A DNA stretch of 64,000 bases from Sphingobacteriales bacterium. GTDB lineage: Bacteria > Bacteroidota > Bacteroidia > Chitinophagales > Chitinophagaceae. The stretch is taken from contig JAHEZE010000004.1 in the NCBI GenBank assembly GCA_023251235.1, positions 654-64,653 of the forward strand, written 5' to 3'. Shown piece after piece: positions 4,462 through 39,274 of the stretch. Below the pieces are notes generated by a model. The model worked only from the letters and a program-made list of their open reading frames with translations. It had not been told where the DNA came from and did no database searches. Position numbers and translations under genes: made by a program. How positions within the stretch are numbered: the stretch's first letter is position 1; every line of letters begins with the position of its first letter.

Positions 4462-5676
4462 ATGCAGTTTGAAAAAATCATTGGCCAACAGGAAGTAAAA
4501 AAACAATTGGTTGAACTGGTGCAGCACAACCGGCTGAGCCATGCTTTGCTTTTTTTAAGCAAAGAAGGTGGCGGAGCCTTATCACTGGCATTTGCGCTGG
4601 CACAATATATTACCTGTGAAAAGGCAAACCCCAAAAAACAAACAACAAATTCCACTGCCTCACTTTTTGGTGAAGAAAATCCAAGCTCCAACATTCAACA
4701 TTCAACATTTAACAATGACGCCTGTGGTACCTGCCCTTCCTGTACCAAAGCAAACCAACTCATTCATCCCGATATTCATTTCAGTTATCCGGTAGTTACA
4801 AAAAAATCCGGCACGCCCCCATTGAGTACAGATTATATAAGTGAGTGGAGAGAGTTTGTAAAAACATCTCCTTACGCAAATGTTTATGACTGGCTACAGT
4901 TCATCGGTGCGGAAAACAAACAGGGAAATATTACGGCGAATGAATGCAATGACATCATCCACAAACTGAGCCTGAAAAGTTTTGAAAGTGAATACAAGGT
5001 TCTCATCATGTGGATGCCCGAATACCTGGGCAATGAAGGAAATAAATTGCTTAAACTGATTGAAGAGCCACCACCCAATACTTTATTTATATTGGTTGCC
5101 GAAAATGAATCATTGTTGTTGCCCACAATACTCAGCCGCTGTCAATTGATAAAAATTCCTGCCCTTGAAACAGCAGACATTGAAAATGAATTGATAGGAA
5201 AACATAATGCTGCAGCTGCAAAAGCAAGACAAATTGCTGCCACCAGCGAGGGCAATTTCCGCGAAGCATTGCAGCTTTTGGAAAATGCGGAAGAAGATTG
5301 GCAGAGCCTGCTGCGGGAATGGTTGAACTCAATAATTAAAACAGGTCCCATAGCACAAACCAAGTGGGTGGAAGAAACAAGCCGGTTGGGGCGGGAAAAG
5401 CAAAAGCAGTTTCTTCGTTACTTTAATCACTTACTGGAGCAATCAATCCGTTCAAAAATTATGGGCAGTGCCAACCTGCTTCCGGATAATGAAAAAGATT
5501 TTGCAGCCAGGCTGAACAAGCTTGCAGACATTAGTCAGCAGCAGGCAATTATAGAAGAACTGGACAAAGCCACTTATTATATTGAACGCAATGCCAACTC
5601 CAAAATCCTCTTTCATGCCCTTACCATAAAGCTTTATCATATCATTCAGGACAAAATTGTATTTTTGACAACTTGA
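4462..5676 (+). CDS. holB: DNA polymerase III delta-prime subunit
   Basis: ATG at 4462 gives MQFEKIIGQQ. It has an AAA+ clamp-loader fold with a CxxC zinc module (ACGTCPSC), LLKLIEEPP and SRC motifs. A heptamer array lies just upstream of the zinc module. Confidence 0.85.
   Translation: MQFEKIIGQQEVKKQLVELVQHNRLSHALLFLSKEGGGALSLAFALAQYITCEKANPKKQTTNSTASLFGEENPSSNIQHSTFNNDACGTCPSCTKANQLIHPDIHFSYPVVTKKSGTPPLSTDYISEWREFVKTSPYANVYDWLQFIGAENKQGNITANECNDIIHKLSLKSFESEYKVLIMWMPEYLGNEGNKLLKLIEEPPPNTLFILVAENESLLLPTILSRCQLIKIPALETADIENELIGKHNAAAAKARQIAATSEGNFREALQLLENAEEDWQSLLREWLNSIIKTGPIAQTKWVEETSRLGREKQKQFLRYFNHLLEQSIRSKIMGSANLLPDNEKDFAARLNKLADISQQQAIIEELDKATYYIERNANSKILFHALTIKLYHIIQDKIVFLTT
4689..4716 (+). 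repeat. Heptamer tandem array (CAACATT x3 plus TAACAAT) inside holB
   Basis: Read directly: caacatt caacatt caacatt taacaat. It is translated in frame as SNIQHSTFNN. Confidence 0.8.
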
Positions 5677-5887: not shown

Positions 5888-5922
5888 CAATTATTAATTC
5901 TTAATTACTAATTTTTAATTAT
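5888..5922 (+). repeat. Heptamer tandem array (TAATTNN x5) abutting the PSP1 gene start codon
   Basis: caattat taattct taattac taatttt taattat, then ctc ATG at 5926. Confidence 0.8.
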
Positions 5923-10129: not shown

Positions 10130-11989
10130 TTGCCAGACAAGATTTTATTATTGCCCGATAACATTGCCAACCAGATAGCGGCCGGTGAAGTAATTCAACG
10201 GCCCGCCAGTGCGGTAAAAGAACTTTTGGAAAATGCAGTAGATGCCGGAGCTAAAGAAATCAAACTTATCATTAATGATGCAGGAAAATCTTTAGTACAG
10301 GTAATAGACAATGGCGGCGGCATGAGTGAAACAGATGCACGAATGAGTTTTGAACGTCATGCTACATCCAAGATTACTACTATTGAAGATTTATTTCATA
10401 TAAAAACAATGGGCTTCCGGGGCGAAGCGCTGGCTTCTATTGCTGCCGTGGCGCAAGTAGAATTAAAAACCAAAAGACTTGAAGACGAAACGGCGACTTA
10501 TATTGAAGTAGAAAATAGTGTTGTAAAAAAACAAGAAGTCATTGCGGCGCCAATCGGAACCAGCATTGCCATGAAGAATTTATTCTTCAATGTGCCGGCA
10601 CGAAGAAATTTTCTGAAAAGTAATAATGCAGAGATGCGTCATATCGTCGATGAATTTACAAGAGTGGCGCTGGCTTTCCCCCATATCTTTTTTTCTTTTA
10701 CAGCAAACAATCAGCAAATCTTTCACCTGGAAGCAGGAAGTATGAAACAGCGGATTCTTCAGTTGCTGGGCAATAACTATAATACAAAACTTGTTGCTGT
10801 AAAAGAAGAAACCGATTACATGAATATTTATGGTTTTGTTGGCAAACCCGAAACTGCTAAAAAGACAAGAGGTGATCAGTATTTTTTTGTCAACAACCGC
10901 TTTATTAAAAGTGCCTACCTGAATCATGCGGTAATGAATGCTTACCAGGAAATGATTACCAAAGACAGTTTCCCGACCTATGTACTTTTTATTGATCTTG
11001 ACCCACAACAGGTGGATGTAAATGTGCACCCGACCAAACAGGAAATAAAATTTGAAGATGAAAAAATTATTTATGCATTTGTACAGGCAGCGGTAAAACA
11101 TTCCCTGGCACAATTCAGCGTTACTCCTACTTTGGATTTTGAATTGGATGCTACCATTCAGCAACTGCCCTCCATTCAGCAACCATTTACTGAAGAAAAA
11201 AAATCGGCTGCTTCTTCATCTTCAATTTTCAAAGGATTTACTGAAAAACATCAGGCACATTTTATTGAGCCAACAAAGAAGAGTGAGCTGAAACACTGGA
11301 GGGAATTCTATGAGGGAGACAAGGAACAAAAAGAAAATATTCAACAATCAACAATCAATGCTCAATTTTCTAGTGAGCTTCCGGACTCTATTCACCATTC
11401 ACCATTCACCATTCACGATTTACGATTCACGAATCTTCTTCAATTACACAACCAATACATTCTTGCGCAAACAGACAATGGATTTATTCTTATCAACCAA
11501 CAACCGGCACATGAAAGAATTATCTATGAACGATTGCAGGAAGCTACTAAAGGAAAGCCCGTTGCAACACAACGAAACATGTTCCCGGTAACTTTTGAAT
11601 TGCCGCCCTCCGATGCAATTATACTGGTAGAATTAATGAATGATCTGCAGCAACTCGGCTATCTGATTGAACCCTTTGGTAAAAATACATTTGTAATACA
11701 AGGCACACCGGCTGATATGGCCCAGGGAAATGAAAAACAGGTGGTCGATTCTTTGCTGGAACAATACAAACATTTCAGTTCGGATTTGAAATTTTCCAAA
11801 AGAGAAAAATTGATCCGTTCGCTGGCATTACAGCAATCTATCAAAGCCGGAAGACAACTTGAAGAAAAAGAAATGCAGTTGTTGGTTGAAGAGTTACTTA
11901 AATGCAAACAACCTAATTCGTCACCAGATGGTAAGCCAACTTACTTAGAATTTAGGAATGAGCAATTGAGCAGGATGTTCGAAGATTGA
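10130..11989 (+). CDS. mutL: DNA mismatch repair protein MutL
   Basis: 619 aa with a GHKL ATPase N-domain (NQIAAGEVIQRPASAVKELLENAVDAG, DNGGGM) and a C-terminal dimerisation domain (QQPAHERIIYE). A TTG start at 10130 is needed to include the conserved N-terminus. The linker contains two heptamer arrays. Confidence 0.95.
   Translation: MPDKILLLPDNIANQIAAGEVIQRPASAVKELLENAVDAGAKEIKLIINDAGKSLVQVIDNGGGMSETDARMSFERHATSKITTIEDLFHIKTMGFRGEALASIAAVAQVELKTKRLEDETATYIEVENSVVKKQEVIAAPIGTSIAMKNLFFNVPARRNFLKSNNAEMRHIVDEFTRVALAFPHIFFSFTANNQQIFHLEAGSMKQRILQLLGNNYNTKLVAVKEETDYMNIYGFVGKPETAKKTRGDQYFFVNNRFIKSAYLNHAVMNAYQEMITKDSFPTYVLFIDLDPQQVDVNVHPTKQEIKFEDEKIIYAFVQAAVKHSLAQFSVTPTLDFELDATIQQLPSIQQPFTEEKKSAASSSSIFKGFTEKHQAHFIEPTKKSELKHWREFYEGDKEQKENIQQSTINAQFSSELPDSIHHSPFTIHDLRFTNLLQLHNQYILAQTDNGFILINQQPAHERIIYERLQEATKGKPVATQRNMFPVTFELPPSDAIILVELMNDLQQLGYLIEPFGKNTFVIQGTPADMAQGNEKQVVDSLLEQYKHFSSDLKFSKREKLIRSLALQQSIKAGRQLEEKEMQLLVEELLKCKQPNSSPDGKPTYLEFRNEQLSRMFED
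11338..11365 (+). repeat. Heptamer array (NNNTCAA x4) in the mutL linker
   Basis: tattcaa caatcaa caatcaa tgctcaa, translated as NIQQSTINAQ. It shares the exact 14-mer aatcaatgctcaat with the array at 31739-31752. Confidence 0.75.
11390..11438 (+). repeat. Heptamer array (ATTCACC x3, ATTCACG, ATTTACG, ATTCACG, AATCTTC) in the mutL linker
   Basis: Read directly. The six clean units total 42 nt (14 codons) and are translated as IHHSPFTIHDLRFT, immediately before the C-terminal domain. Confidence 0.9.
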
Positions 11990-12066
11990 ATTAATAATGA
12001 ATAATTAAAAATTAAGAATTGCTTCGCTGACTGAAATTGTTAATTATTAATTTTTAATTCTTAATT
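11988..12066. repeat. Inverted pair of heptamer arrays, (NAATTAA)x5 - 14-nt loop - (NTTAATT)x4, between convergent mutL and dacB
   Basis: The left arm is 11988-12022 and overlaps the mutL stop. The right arm is 12037-12066 and encodes the last residues and stop of dacB (QLRIKN*). The arms are mutually complementary, so this could be a bidirectional AT-rich terminator hairpin. Confidence 0.8.
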
Positions 12067-13381
12067 GATGTATGAATTTCTCCACCGCCCTTCTTACTGC
12101 TGTTGCAGATGCCTGATGATTATTAACTAAAGTCGAAAAAATAAGTAGCTTTCCTTTTTTAGTGTACATATATCCACTGAGAGCCACTACACCACCCAGC
12201 GTTCCGGTTTTAGCATAAATAAAACTACTATCAGATTTGTAGTAGTTGCTGATAGTTCCTTCGCCCCCGGTTGGTAAAACGACTTTGATTCTATCCATTC
12301 CAAATTCATTTTTCATTTTATCAAGGATAGAAACAAAATCCTGTGGAGTAAAAAGATTGTAACGGCTAAGTCCTGATCCATCCACCCATCTTGGTTTTTG
12401 CGGCAGATCTTTAAAATCTGTTTTAAGTAATGTATCTATAATTTTTTCATCGTTCATTACACCCAGCTTTTCATTACTCACCATCAGCAAACTTTGTTCA
12501 GCAAAAAAATTATCACTATTATGCATCATAGGTTTTAAGAGGGAGTCCGTAGATTGTGTTTTGATATAGCGGGCCGACAAATCATTTTTTTTAAATTGTT
12601 TGAAGAACAATTCATCATTCATTAACGATATAGATTTCCCAATTGTATCTGGCAACAATTCCAAAGCTGCCTTTATTCCATCGGTAACAAAAGGAACATA
12701 AAGCTCTTTATATTTTTCCTTGCTCTGAAGCAGTTCAAATACATTTTCACCAATTTTTCTTTTTACATCAAATTTTTTTGTCTCTTCAACACTTCTGAAA
12801 TTTACTTCCCAATTAATTTCAGGAACTGAATATATCGTTGTCGGTTCCTTTCCGTTTTCGCCCTCCTGCACCCATTTCAGAACATTCCCATATACTGGCA
12901 TAGGGCTTCTTTCCGCCATATAACTTTCATTGTAATCATTCCAAGACCAACCAGATCCAAGTGCTTCTGATTTCCACATGACCTCATTGATGTATATCTT
13001 CTTTTTTGACTGTTTTAAAAAATCAAATGCCGGTTGATGTTTAAAATCCGGGTGAAGAAGTGTAGGATCGCCTTCAGGTAAAATAAATAAAGCTGTATCA
13101 TTTTCTATTGTCACAAAACACTTCAAACTATCTCCCAAATATTTCATCGCAGCATAACAGGTAGGAATTTTTGTATTACTGGCAGGCACAAAATATTTAT
13201 CGCCCTGGTAATTGTACCAATATTTTCCGGTTGCCGGTTCATAAATGCTGATGCCAACATGAGCAGTGAGGAGTGAGCTGTCTTTTAATACAAGTTGTTT
13301 GGCCGACTTAGAAATTTTCTGTTGTACTGAACAGGATGTAAGAATTAATAATGAATAATTAATAATTAATAATTTTTTCAT
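12047..13381 (-). CDS. dacB: D-alanyl-D-alanine carboxypeptidase/endopeptidase (PBP4, peptidase S13)
   Basis: It has an SNTK active-site motif and KTGTL near the C-terminus. The start is probably the ATG at 13381, giving MKKLLIINYSLLILTSC with a lipobox. The ORF track's 13390 start is also an ATG. Confidence 0.8.
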   Translation of the reverse strand: MKKLLIINYSLLILTSCSVQQKISKSAKQLVLKDSSLLTAHVGISIYEPATGKYWYNYQGDKYFVPASNTKIPTCYAAMKYLGDSLKCFVTIENDTALFILPEGDPTLLHPDFKHQPAFDFLKQSKKKIYINEVMWKSEALGSGWSWNDYNESYMAERSPMPVYGNVLKWVQEGENGKEPTTIYSVPEINWEVNFRSVEETKKFDVKRKIGENVFELLQSKEKYKELYVPFVTDGIKAALELLPDTIGKSISLMNDELFFKQFKKNDLSARYIKTQSTDSLLKPMMHNSDNFFAEQSLLMVSNEKLGVMNDEKIIDTLLKTDFKDLPQKPRWVDGSGLSRYNLFTPQDFVSILDKMKNEFGMDRIKVVLPTGGEGTISNYYKSDSSFIYAKTGTLGGVVALSGYMYTKKGKLLIFSTLVNNHQASATAVRRAVEKFIHQLRIKN

Positions 13382-13413
13382 TTCCAGCATTCTTAATTTT
13401 CAATTCTTAATTA
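13343..13413. repeat. Inverted pair of heptamer arrays bracketing the dacB start codon
   Basis: (AATTAAT-like)x5 at 13343-13377 encodes the signal-peptide core. (CTTAATT/TTCAATT)x3 lies at 13392-13413. The loop at 13378-13391 holds both candidate ATGs. 13343-13374 matches 11989-12020 at 30 of 32 positions. Confidence 0.8.
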
Positions 13414-24364: not shown

Positions 24365-25396
24365 ATGGAGCATCTATTACAACAGATTGAAGAATACAAA
24401 AAAGAAATTGCCGCTTTTTCAGGAGCAGATGAAAAAACTATTGAAGAATTCCGCATCAAATGGCTTGGCACAAAAGGTTTGGTGAAAACCATCATGGGTG
24501 AAATGAAAAATGTGCCCAATGAAAAGAAAAAAGAGTTTGGACAGATACTAAATGAATTCAAACAATTCACCGAAGCAAAGTATGAGGAACTAAAAGCATC
24601 CCTGAACTCTGAACTCAGAACTAAGAACTCAGAACTTGATTTATCTCTTCCCGGCGATCCAATGCCGCTGGGTAGTCGTCATCCCATCAGCCTTATGACG
24701 AATAGGATTATCTCCATCTTTCAGCGATTGGGATTTGCGGTAGCCGAAGGGCCTGAGATTGAAGATGACTGGCACAATTTCACGGCGTTGAATTTACCCG
24801 AGCATCATCCTGCACGGGATATGCAGGATACATTTTATGTACAGCAAAATCCCGATTGGCTATTACGTACACATACCAGCAACATACAGATAAGGGAAAT
24901 GAAGAAAGGCAAATTGCCCATTCGTATTATTTGTCCGGGCCGTGTGTACCGCAATGAAACAGTAAGTGCAAGAAGTCATTGCTTCTTTCACCAGGTGGAA
25001 GGCTTATATATTGATGAAAATGTTTCATTCGCCGATCTGAAACAGACACTTTACTTTTTTGCCAAAGAAATGTATGGCCACGATGTAAAGATTCGTTTCC
25101 GTCCATCATATTTTCCTTTCACAGAACCCAGCGCTGAGATGGACATCAGTTGCATGCTTTGCAAAGGCGAAGGCTGTAATGTTTGCAAAAAAACCGGCTG
25201 GCTCGAAATTCTTGGCAGCGGCATGGTGCACCCGAATGTTTTATCCAACTGCGGCATTGACTCCAACAAATACACAGGTTTTGCATTTGGTATGGGTATT
25301 GAAAGACCTGCGTTATTAAAATATGGTATTAACGATATCCGATTGTTCAGTGAAAATGATATACGGTTTTTAAAACAGTTTACGAGTGCCGTTTAA
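24365..25396 (+). CDS. pheS: Phenylalanine--tRNA ligase alpha subunit
   Basis: 343 aa with class II motifs (HPARDMQDTFY, FRPSYFPFTEPSAE, GFAFGMGIER). There is a heptamer array in the N-terminal linker. Confidence 0.95.
   Translation: MEHLLQQIEEYKKEIAAFSGADEKTIEEFRIKWLGTKGLVKTIMGEMKNVPNEKKKEFGQILNEFKQFTEAKYEELKASLNSELRTKNSELDLSLPGDPMPLGSRHPISLMTNRIISIFQRLGFAVAEGPEIEDDWHNFTALNLPEHHPARDMQDTFYVQQNPDWLLRTHTSNIQIREMKKGKLPIRIICPGRVYRNETVSARSHCFFHQVEGLYIDENVSFADLKQTLYFFAKEMYGHDVKIRFRPSYFPFTEPSAEMDISCMLCKGEGCNVCKKTGWLEILGSGMVHPNVLSNCGIDSNKYTGFAFGMGIERPALLKYGINDIRLFSENDIRFLKQFTSAV
24602..24636 (+). repeat. Heptamer array (CTGAACT x2, CAGAACT, AAGAACT, CAGAACT) inside pheS
   Basis: Read directly. It is translated as LNSELRTKNSEL, between the N-terminal coiled coil and the catalytic core. 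Confidence 0.85.
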
Positions 25397-31731: not shown

Positions 31732-31766
31732 TTTCAATAATCAATGCTCAATACTCAAGATTCAAT
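31732..31766 (+). repeat. Heptamer array (NNTCAAT x5) overlapping the gldH start region
   Basis: tttcaat aatcaat gctcaat actcaag attcaat. Both candidate ATGs (31744 and 31765) lie inside it. Confidence 0.8.
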
Positions 31767-34696: not shown

Positions 34697-34770
34697 CTAC
34701 GAATTTAGAACTACGAAGTACGAACTTTTTTCACTTCTATCCTTACTTCTTACTTCGTACTTCGTATTTT
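34697..34770. repeat. Inverted pair of heptamer arrays (NTACGAA x4 / NTACTTC-GTACTTC x4) filling a divergent intergenic region
   Basis: ctacgaa tttagaa ctacgaa gtacgaa, spacer, ttacttc ttacttc gtacttc gtatttt. tacgaagtacgaa is the exact reverse complement of ttcgtacttcgta. Confidence 0.85.
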
Positions 34771-38190: not shown

Positions 38191-38232
38191 CATTGAAAAT
38201 TGAACATTGATAATTGTGTATTGAACATTTAA
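38191..38232 (+). repeat. Heptamer array (NATTGAA x6) abutting the dusB start codon
   Basis: cattgaa aattgaa cattgat aattgtg tattgaa catttaa, then a ATG at 38234. It is the reverse-complement family of the TCAAT arrays. Confidence 0.8.
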
Positions 38233-38233
38233 A

Positions 38234-39274
38234 ATGATAAAAATCGGTAACATATCACTTCCTGATTTCCCTTTACTCCTTGCACCTATGGAAGATGTAA
38301 GTGATCCTCCCTTCCGTTCAGTATGTAAGGATAATGGCGCCGATCTGATGTTCACAGAGTTTATCTCCAGCGAAGGGTTAATTCGTGACGCAATTAAAAG
38401 CCGAAAAAAATTGGACATATTTGAATATGAACGCCCGGTTGGCATACAAATTTTTGGCGGTGATGAAGAAAGCCTGTCGCTGGCTGCCAAAATTGTTGAT
38501 GTAACTCAACCTGATTTACTCGATATTAATTTTGGTTGCCCGGTAAAAAAAGTGGCGTTACGTGGCGCCGGTGCCGGTGTACTGAAAGATATTGACCTGA
38601 TGGTTCGTTTAACTTCGGCTGTTGTACAATCAACTTCACTGCCTGTAACTGTAAAAACAAGATTGGGCTGGGATGATAATAATAAAAACATTGAAGAGGT
38701 GGCAGAACGGCTGCAGGATGTTGGGATAAAAGCGTTGGCTATTCACGGACGTACAAGAACACAGATGTATAAAGGCGACGCCAACTGGACATTAATTGGC
38801 AAAGTAAAAAATAATCCCCGCATCACTATACCGATTTTTGGCAATGGCGATATTGATTCTCCTGAAAAAGCTTTGGAATATAAAAACCGTTATGGTGTGG
38901 ATGGTATTATGATTGGCCGTGCAGCCATTGGCTATCCATGGATATTTAATGAGATAAAACATTTTATTAAATCAGGTGAGCATTTGCCTTCACCCACTAT
39001 TGATGACCGTGTTGCTGTTTGCCGTAAACATTTATATAAAAGTGTAGAATGGAAAAACTCTGTGGTAGGCATCAACGAAATGCGAAGGCATTATGCTAAT
39101 TATTTAAAAGGATTACCCAATATAAAAGAATATAGAAACAAATTAGTTACACTAAAAACCGTTGAAGAGATTGATGAGGTGCTGAATGATATTCTGAAAA
39201 ATTACGAGGGGTTTGAATTTGAAAAAATGGCAATTGAGTTAATTAACTATCACGAAAAATGCCCGGTGGAGTAA
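38234..39274 (+). CDS. dusB: tRNA-dihydrouridine synthase
   Basis: 346 aa with LAPMEDVSD, NFGCP and TVKTRLGW motifs. Confidence 0.9.
   Translation: MIKIGNISLPDFPLLLAPMEDVSDPPFRSVCKDNGADLMFTEFISSEGLIRDAIKSRKKLDIFEYERPVGIQIFGGDEESLSLAAKIVDVTQPDLLDINFGCPVKKVALRGAGAGVLKDIDLMVRLTSAVVQSTSLPVTVKTRLGWDDNNKNIEEVAERLQDVGIKALAIHGRTRTQMYKGDANWTLIGKVKNNPRITIPIFGNGDIDSPEKALEYKNRYGVDGIMIGRAAIGYPWIFNEIKHFIKSGEHLPSPTIDDRVAVCRKHLYKSVEWKNSVVGINEMRRHYANYLKGLPNIKEYRNKLVTLKTVEEIDEVLNDILKNYEGFEFEKMAIELINYHEKCPVE

Follow-up and report, generated by a model that had tools for sequence, protein, structure and literature searches.

Translated heptanucleotide repeats in the interdomain linker of MutL in a Chitinophagaceae bacterium and its relatives

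How does a tandem repeat with a unit of seven nucleotides come to be translated within a housekeeping gene, and does it serve the protein that carries it? The question is raised by mutL in a stretch of 64,000 nucleotides from a soil bacterium of the Chitinophagaceae (Sphingobacteriales bacterium, GenBank assembly GCA_023251235.1, contig JAHEZE010000004.1, positions 654 to 64,653 of the forward strand), to which we refer as the window. An earlier note on this DNA had described two heptamer arrays that are read in frame in the linker between the domains of MutL. Both arrays were confirmed by the sequence itself, by the list of open reading frames (ORFs) and by Tandem Repeats Finder (TRF). The comparison with relatives that is given below favours repeats that are tolerated by the linker.

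Two arrays in frame in the distal linker

The mutL ORF extends from 10130 to 11989 on the forward strand (stop codon included, with a TTG start as listed) and encodes 619 residues. Pfam recognizes HATPase_c_3 (PF13589/PF02518), DNA_mis_repair (PF01119, residues 210-326) and MutL_C (PF08676, residues 437-577) in its product, and the N-terminal GHKL ATPase, the transducer and the C-terminal dimerization domain of a MutL protein are all present, as judged from Pfam and from matches in the Protein Data Bank (PDB). The C-terminal domain (11435-11986) matches the C-terminal domains of Bacillus subtilis and Neisseria gonorrhoeae MutL in the PDB search and aligns to the B. subtilis structures 3gab, 3kdg and 3kdk. 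The linker between these domains has two parts. Its proximal part (residues 327-395, 11108-11314), which ends with HWREFYE, is highly conserved in 120 homologues and 44 aligned sequences and shows no 7-nt periodicity; it served as the upstream anchor for the linker comparisons. The distal part (residues 396-435, 11315-11434) is hypervariable in the alignment and matches itself at a lag of 7 nt with a score of 0.64. In 4,178 control windows of 120 nt, taken from the remainder of mutL in the 161 alleles introduced below, this score had a mean of 0.258, a standard deviation of 0.041 and a maximum of 0.407.

Array 2 lies at 11390-11431 and consists, as had been claimed, of six ATTCACS units (three times ATTCACC, followed by ATTCACG, ATTTACG and ATTCACG), which make 42 nt or 14 codons. 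It begins on a codon boundary and encodes exactly the peptide given before, IHHSPFTIHDLRFT (residues 421-434). As 7 and 3 share no factor, such an array is read in all three frames and yields a peptide with a period of seven residues (ATTCACC three times gives IHHSPFT). TRF reports array 2 at 11390-11430 with period 7, 5.9 copies and a match of 91%, and its longest perfect period-7 tract measures 27 nt. It ends 4 nt before the C-terminal domain. Because the solved C-terminal domain of B. subtilis MutL aligns from L437 (LQLHNQYIL) onward, the array abuts a structured domain, which bears out the statement of the earlier note that it ends where this domain starts.

Array 1 (11336-11370) was delimited by TRF and by printing the sequence in 7-nt register. 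It is built of about five imperfect AAYNNTC units (AATATTC AACAATC AACAATC AATGCTC AATTTTC) that encode NIQQSTINAQF, and TRF finds a perfect core of 2.6 copies of TCAACAA at 11341-11358. The array had been placed at 11338-11365. The array and the peptide NIQQSTINAQ were recovered, but this start is 2 nt off the codon boundary and the span that codes for the peptide is 11336-11365. A homologous array, encoding ENVQRSMLNAQ, is carried by the nearest relatives. Upstream of array 1, the stretch 11315-11335, which has GACAAGG-like units and encodes GDKEQKE, is probably the decayed leftover of an array that we call array A and that is present elsewhere in the clade. In 7-nt register it is similar to the RACAAGG arrays that the related loci L008 and L011 have at this position, and to the GDK[EA]Q..RNKEQ of P0026 and P0039.

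Within array 1 the 14-mer AATCAATGCTCAAT (11353-11366) has an exact second copy at 31739-31752. With one mismatch allowed, 0.13 matches are expected. The second copy is part of a TCAATRC array on the forward strand (31734-31766, found by TRF) at the 5' end of gldH, a gene recognized by its match to GldH_lipo in Pfam. The identity of the two 14-mers had been correctly noted; the description of the gldH array as non-coding does not hold in full. Both candidate ATG start codons of gldH lie within TCAATGC units of this array, ahead of the lipoprotein signal peptide. The array is therefore not strictly non-coding, and the repeat supplies or overlaps the translation start. The shared 14-mer had also been used to argue for a repeat origin of the MutL sequence. 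It shows only that the unit family TCAATGC recurs, and this unit is old in mutL, being common to the nearest relatives.

Period 7 accounts for 16 of the 40 TRF rows of the window. Long exact period-7 runs were observed four times against 0.07 expected from dinucleotide-preserving shuffles of the window, and no long exact run was found in it at any other period from 4 to 15. In the sense of at least three head-to-tail copies of a 7-nt unit, array 2 is a heptanucleotide repeat with its 5.9 copies, and array 1 has its approximately five imperfect units.

Periodicity and turnover of the linker in relatives

A protein search yielded 120 MutL homologues of 609-644 residues and 80-88% identity from Chitinophagaceae metagenome-assembled genomes (MAGs). 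At the DNA level mutL was compared in 80 metagenome contigs and in 80 species-level genomes, among which are Terrimonas, Ferruginibacter and many MAGs. Together with the window these sources give 161 alleles; the boundaries of the linkers were set from the protein alignment. The alleles are phylogenetically related and counts among them are not independent events. All length variation of MutL among these relatives falls between HWR[DE]FYE and LxQLHNQYIL, where the distal linker measures 69-168 nt. In 126 of the 161 linkers the self-match was best at lag 7 among lags 1-12, against 3.7% of the 4,178 control windows, and in 116 linkers it exceeded the control maximum. Some lineages, for instance T. 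ferruginea and T. ginsenosidimutans, showed no periodicity in the linker.

Printed in 7-nt register, the linker arrays occupy two fixed positions across the relatives, and their unit sequence and copy number vary among related genomes. The units directly after HWRDFYE are, depending on the lineage, AGTCGGG or AGTCAGG, GAAGTCN, or RACAAGG. Directly before the C-terminal domain they are TCACCAT, CTCACCA, CACGACT, CACACCT or CCTTCAA. Since all units of one array carry the substitutions of their lineage, the encoded peptide changes wholesale, and IHHSPFT, THDSRLT, HTLHLTP or FNLQPST is found before the C-terminal domain in different lineages. Positional equivalents of array 2 are present in 82 relatives, that is, in 82 alleles with a clear array beside the C-terminal domain. 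Among these, identity within an array was approximately 0.88 at every level of divergence, whereas the best-register identity of the equivalent array between species dropped from 0.82 to 0.66, and within-array identity was the higher of the two in 92% of the distant pairs. This pattern points to concerted evolution or to continual regeneration of the arrays. In homologous pairs of equal length at 80-85% domain identity, the linkers were 0.70 identical, third codon positions 0.60 and second positions 0.96. By this measure the linker DNA diverges almost at the rate of third codon positions, a near-neutral rate.

The periodicity and the concerted changes of the units strongly support the view of the earlier note that the linker goes back to a DNA repeat and not to an evolved peptide. 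Against this view would speak orthologues that have the same peptide at the same position with ordinary synonymous divergence and without nucleotide periodicity. The nearest orthologues do have similar peptides at the equivalent place (IHHSPFTIH[DE] and ENVQRSMLNAQ), but the DNA that encodes them is strongly periodic. No such orthologue was thus encountered among the relatives, and the core interpretation of a repeat origin stands.

This is different for the unit number. That six units, being a multiple of three, keep the frame is arithmetically right, but it is coincidental and cannot be generalized, because copy numbers cluster at 4-5. Of 173 linker arrays, 100 have a copy number near 4, 41 near 5, 19 near 3 and 7 near 6, without a peak at 3 or 6. 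Nor did length differences between alleles show an excess of multiples of 21 over the expected 1/7 (12/54, 16/91 and 47/562 in three divergence bins). In pairwise alignments 7-nt gaps are offset by other small gaps, with one clean gap of 21 nt (L099 against L102), and array 2 of the window is about two units longer than that of the nearest relatives, yet the net difference is 9 nt. This indicates that the frame is kept over the whole linker, by partial units and neighbouring insertions or deletions, and not array by array.

Besides arrays, some linkers contain small palindromes in frame, such as CCGATAGCTATCGG, for which 12 copies were counted in 2 Mb, the majority of them intergenic. For the perfect palindrome (T/A)CCCGATAGCTATCGGGA, the 12 occurrences in 2 Mb compare with approximately 0.015 expected. 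Its sites are mostly intergenic (L007, L032, L035, L078, L083, L097 and L116), and it is also inserted in frame in MutL linkers (L004 at 8466, L088 at 2664, L136 at 2689, and L003), where it takes three positions and is read in two frames (PDSYRD and PIAIGS). Further in-frame palindromes of the linker are AGACAAGGCATGCCTTGTCT (L099) and CCTGCCTGCCGGCAGGCAAGG (L011 and L035). These palindromes look like tiny dispersed hairpin elements.

The C-terminal domain that follows the arrays was compared with that of an endonuclease-type MutL, which carries the metal-site motifs DQHA(X)2E(X)4E, ACR/SCK and C(P/N)HGRP. In the alignment to B. subtilis MutL (3gab) these motifs are absent from the MutL of the window: DQHAAQERIKYE is replaced by INQQPAHERIIYE, SCK by LQQ and CPHGRP by SPDGKP, at sites near 11495-11533 and 11915-11935. 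The versions found clade-wide, in all 161 alleles, are I[HN]QQAAHER..YE, [RW]QQ and SP[DN]GNP, and the ATPase motifs are intact. This implies that the absence of the canonical motifs is a trait of the lineage and not a decay of the gene in the window. A literature search on the endonuclease motifs of Bacteroidetes MutL returned nothing.

Heptamer arrays outside mutL and in other bacteria

The earlier note had treated the arrays as a peculiarity of one gene. This view cannot be maintained, since they are a property of the clade and of the genome as a whole. TRF rows in 2.05 Mb of clade loci are dominated by periods 7 (567 rows), 14 (149) and 21 (44). When non-redundant arrays of at least 2.8 copies were counted, 427 had period 7, of which 254 lie outside the mutL linkers, against 30, 57 and 39 at periods 6, 8 and 9. 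Period 7 is thus over-represented against chance and other periods in the window and in the clade alike. The loci were selected via mutL, which inflates the apparent uniqueness of this gene. Array density per 100 kb was 984 in the MutL linkers, 89 in non-coding DNA and 5.6 in other coding DNA; these values rest on heuristic gene calls in the flanks (longest non-overlapping ORFs). Clade-wide the arrays are therefore denser outside genes, whereas those of the linker are coding and in frame, which makes them atypical members of the heptanucleotide class by their location.

About half of the other coding arrays lie within 90 nt of an ORF start, and most of the remaining ones are found at a few orthologous domain junctions. 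Two of these junctions are present in the window, and their arrays were detected by TRF on the forward strand. One (4689-4714), 3.7 copies of CAACATT that encode SNIQHSTFN, lies just before a CxxC motif in a gene for a DNA polymerase III delta'-like protein (holB-like). The other (24604-24636), 4.7 copies of GAACTCA that encode LNSELRTKNSEL, marks the junction of the N-terminal domain and the catalytic core in pheS. The holB-like junction is periodic in 22 of 42 orthologues and the pheS junction in 26 of 54, and the heptamers differ between relatives. The lengths are almost fixed, at 36 and 39 nt respectively, which suggests that periodicity was gained without a change in length. A conserved protein of about 450 residues, encoded upstream of mutL in L037, L058, L036, L035 and L158, has AAGGCAC-type arrays (KAQGARHKGQG) in its C-terminal tail, which is rich in Q, G and K and is another tolerant site of low complexity. 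Among several such tolerant sites the MutL linker is the most permissive.

Other arrays of the window lie closer to the borders of genes. AT-rich heptamer arrays just upstream of or across start codons were found at 5889-5922, 13389-13412, 38192-38235 and 13339-13374. They belong to a PSP1-family gene, a PBP4-like gene and dus, and one of them traverses the predicted signal-peptide region of the PBP4-like ORF. Arrays also occur as inverted pairs. AATTAAT/AATTATT (11989-12020 with 12035-12066) is located between the convergent mutL and PBP4-like genes, and CTACGAA/TACTTCG (34697-34726 with 34744-34766) upstream of a HAD hydrolase gene. Such pairs could form hairpins, for example terminator-like structures made of repeats.

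The arrays resemble the long simple sequence repeats of 7 nt known from bacteria, which, as far as they are summarized in PMC4679880 and PMC4692102 (citing Mrazek et al., 2007), are tandem heptamers of few copies with a genome-wide excess of period 7, vary in length and sequence among related genomes and have been attributed to slippage. According to the same summaries they are mainly intergenic, and units within genes are expected to be multiples of three. The arrays of this clade are unlike these in that units which are no multiple of three are read in frame where the domains of housekeeping proteins meet, and in that they persist and evolve in concert across a family-level clade. The TAACTGA repeats of Beggiatoaceae, cyanobacteria and a few Bacteroidetes (MacGregor, 2015; PMC4679880) are likewise direct heptamer repeats, often at start codons, and the gldH, dus and PSP1-family arrays of the window are placed in a similar way. 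The closeness of about half of the clade's coding arrays to an ORF start is likewise reminiscent of the TAACTGA repeats of Beggiatoaceae. It was also worked out there that a translated heptamer gives a repeat of seven residues (PMC4679880). TAACTGA is a single unit that bears stop codons in its forward orientation, whereas the units in the clade of the window are many and lineage-specific. Tandem copies of TAACTGA were found neither in the window nor in the 160 related loci.

The units of the cyanobacterial STRR families 1-3 are CCCCAGT, TTGGTCA and CAACAGT. Tandem copies of these units, of GGGAATC and of GGGGAYT were absent from the window, and among the 160 loci one two-copy CAACAGT was seen in a single relative. 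STRR and the GGGAATC/GGGGAYT repeats of Xanthomonas and Nostoc are alike in being abundant heptamer tandems that vary between close relatives, and they differ in having defined units, in being mostly intergenic and, in part, in their capacity to form G-quadruplexes (PMC4692102). The mutL arrays are bacterial heptanucleotide simple repeats in the general sense, and they fall into none of the named unit families that were searched.

For the tolA gene of Escherichia coli the units are reportedly multiples of three that are read in one peptide frame; the heptamer arrays differ in that they cycle through all three frames. In the description outlined in PMC3477136, the variable linker repeats of tolA are similar in that they encode a spacer of variable length inside a protein. 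A survey of short tandem repeats across the tree of life (2025) reported a high density in Bacteroidota, coding DNA included, and did not discuss 7-nt units. The literature searched contained no earlier account of heptamer arrays read in frame in MutL or in Chitinophagaceae, and their systematic use at interdomain junctions of housekeeping proteins and their clade-wide concerted evolution appear undescribed in it.

Origin of the arrays and alternative explanations

The explanation that we favour, with a probability of about 0.7, is that the MutL arrays are heptanucleotide repeats made by slippage and tolerated in a disordered, nearly neutral linker without a sequence-specific role. Short arrays would be created, expanded, contracted and homogenized throughout the genome, most likely by replication slippage that prefers units of 7 nt, and selection would purge most of those that arise within genes. 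The distal tether of MutL (40 residues) would have to stay open for translation and to keep a net length that is a multiple of three; it would probably also have to be hydrophilic and not too short. Selection would then act as a filter only, against units that bear a stop codon in any rotation, against out-of-frame alleles and, probably, against linkers that are very hydrophobic or very short. Apart from this, the tether, being disordered, would accept whatever the repeats write, and the arrays would be a cheap spacer. What we infer in this explanation is slippage as the generator, a disordered state of the segment and the lack of a specific function.

The arrays at the junctions of the essential pheS and holB-like gene show that the process is independent of the dispensability of the gene, and the presence of dispersed palindromes in frame in the linker argues for tolerance. 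Tolerance agrees with experiment as well, because E. coli MutL from which 40% of the linker had been deleted was not a mutator, although the bypass of roadblocks was lost (PMC6902014). In many bacteria heptanucleotide repeats are the commonest long simple repeats, with slippage as their proposed source (Mrazek, 2007, as cited in PMC4679880 and PMC4692102).

Several points weigh against this explanation. Arrays are 11 times as dense in the MutL linker as in non-coding DNA, and from tolerance alone no more than parity would be expected. The excess is due in part to the shared ancestry of the 161 alleles and to the choice of loci, and the linker may in addition be a local hot spot or under weak selection that favours arrays. 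The periodicity of the linker and the density of arrays in its flanks were weakly and not significantly correlated (rho 0.16, p = 0.17), so that the prediction on this relation is neither confirmed nor refuted. The fixed lengths of the pheS and holB-like junctions fit expansion and contraction only if selection on length is tight. An AlphaFold2 model of MutL (built on the alignment of 44 sequences) had a mean pLDDT (predicted local distance difference test) of 37.7, at which disorder and poor modelling are inseparable, and was not used.

Instead of slippage, a dedicated process of this lineage might impose the 7-nt periodicity, either by templated conversion at an offset of 7 nt or driven by an element or enzyme, with the linker as preferred target. 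Such a process would fit the junctions of pheS and the holB-like gene, which turn periodic at constant lengths, the unique preference for period 7 (4-8 times over periods 6, 8 and 9) and the higher array density in the linker than in intergenic DNA. Mismatch repair may moreover be unusual in a clade whose MutL is devoid of the canonical endonuclease and zinc motifs. Nonetheless, no associated gene or element was identified. The units are diverse and reflect the composition of their surroundings, being rich in AT between genes and giving hydrophilic codons within them, which fits a generic and not a sequence-specific process; selection can explain the fixed length of the junctions, and the published cause of the 7-nt excess in bacteria, as far as it is given in PMC4679880 and PMC4692102, is slippage of the polymerase. 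We therefore consider a dedicated process unlikely.

Because the repeats lie in a repair gene, a reversible mutator switch has to be weighed. The slip of one unit would shift the frame of mutL before the dimerization domain and give rise to a repair-deficient subpopulation, and a second slip would restore the gene. When the loss or gain of one unit was simulated in either array, MutL was truncated at residues 416-484 of 619, while the loss of three units stayed in frame. It is only in silico that a change in copy number toggles the product. There is a precedent in Salmonella and E. coli, where mutL alternates between a functional and a defective allele by means of 6-bp repeats (Chen et al., 2010; PMC2955026). 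In both cases a short tandem repeat in mutL could alter function through its copy number by slipped-strand mispairing. The 6-bp repeat, however, lies in the part of the gene that encodes the N-terminal ATPase, and its changes keep the frame. It does not extend beyond the close relatives of Salmonella, and experiments have demonstrated that it switches (PMC2955026). The heptamers are located in the linker, one unit would cause a frameshift, and the comparative data bear no sign of frequent switching.

In favour of a switch, the two array positions of mutL have been retained throughout a family-level clade, with 11 times the intergenic density of arrays, and 14% of the linker arrays reach a purity of at least 95%, as compared with 7% of the arrays in other coding DNA and 0% of those between genes. 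On the other hand, no perfect tract exceeds 33 nt (the median is 15 nt, and the window has 27 nt), which is short, and the median purity of 84% and copy number of 4.3 equal those of arrays elsewhere, coding or intergenic, so the linker tracts are neither longer nor purer than background repeats. Frequent length polymorphism or out-of-frame alleles were not seen either in the 12 close pairs or in the 160 loci. Length differed in just one of the 12 allele pairs with at least 93% domain identity, and a split-frame mutL was found in none of the 160 fetched loci, a retrieval that favoured intact genes; consensus assemblies of metagenomes cannot reveal slipped alleles of low frequency. All 471 non-periodic 20-mers that are shared between linkers are read in the same frame, which leaves no trace of rescued frameshifts. 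Finally, pheS and the holB-like gene bear equivalent arrays, and in these essential genes switching off would be lethal. A mutator switch is hence very unlikely. The same low credence is given to a slow form of it, in which the repair-deficient state itself raises the chance of the restoring slip. If true, it would explain why arrays persist at two positions of mutL, at a density above the intergenic level, in a clade that lacks the endonuclease motifs.

Selection might also act on the peptide, with xHHSPFTIHx as a functional motif beside the C-terminal domain and the periodicity as a relic or coincidence. IHHSPFTIH[DE] or near variants of it do occur at the same position in many relatives (75-88% identity), and functional motifs are known from the linkers of eukaryotic MLH1, as outlined in PMC9586283 and PMC10325900. 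Where the peptide is shared, however, the DNA is also a clean heptamer array and not a set of synonymous variants. Other lineages encode unrelated peptides through concerted changes of the units, or have no array at all (T. ferruginea, T. ginsenosidimutans), and the linker diverges near-neutrally. This makes a selected motif highly improbable. An artefact of assembly or sequencing, or a chance stretch of low complexity, is effectively refuted, for although most relatives are metagenome-assembled and short repeats can be mis-assembled, the same architecture is shared by 160 assemblies that were made independently, among them those of the cultured Terrimonas sp. R1 and T. pollutisoli and some from long reads, with intact ORFs and a periodicity far above that of shuffles and control windows.

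The tether of MutL in this soil bacterium and its relatives is written to a large extent by translated 7-nt repeats, most likely as a tolerated by-product of a genome-wide repeat habit and not as a special device. As a case of a repair gene with slippage-prone repeats it is self-referential, and the present evidence speaks against a switch. It cautions that seemingly conserved linker motifs in close relatives can be relics of repeats, and it offers a comparative handle on what the MutL linker needs, namely length and freedom from stop codons, not sequence. Units that are not a multiple of three are not barred from genes. The clade provides a natural example in which a mutational bias at the DNA level, the lineage-specific excess of 7-nt repeats, writes the sequence of housekeeping proteins (MutL, PheS and a clamp-loader subunit), with tethers that turn over the repeat input by concerted evolution while the folded domains remain 80-90% identical.

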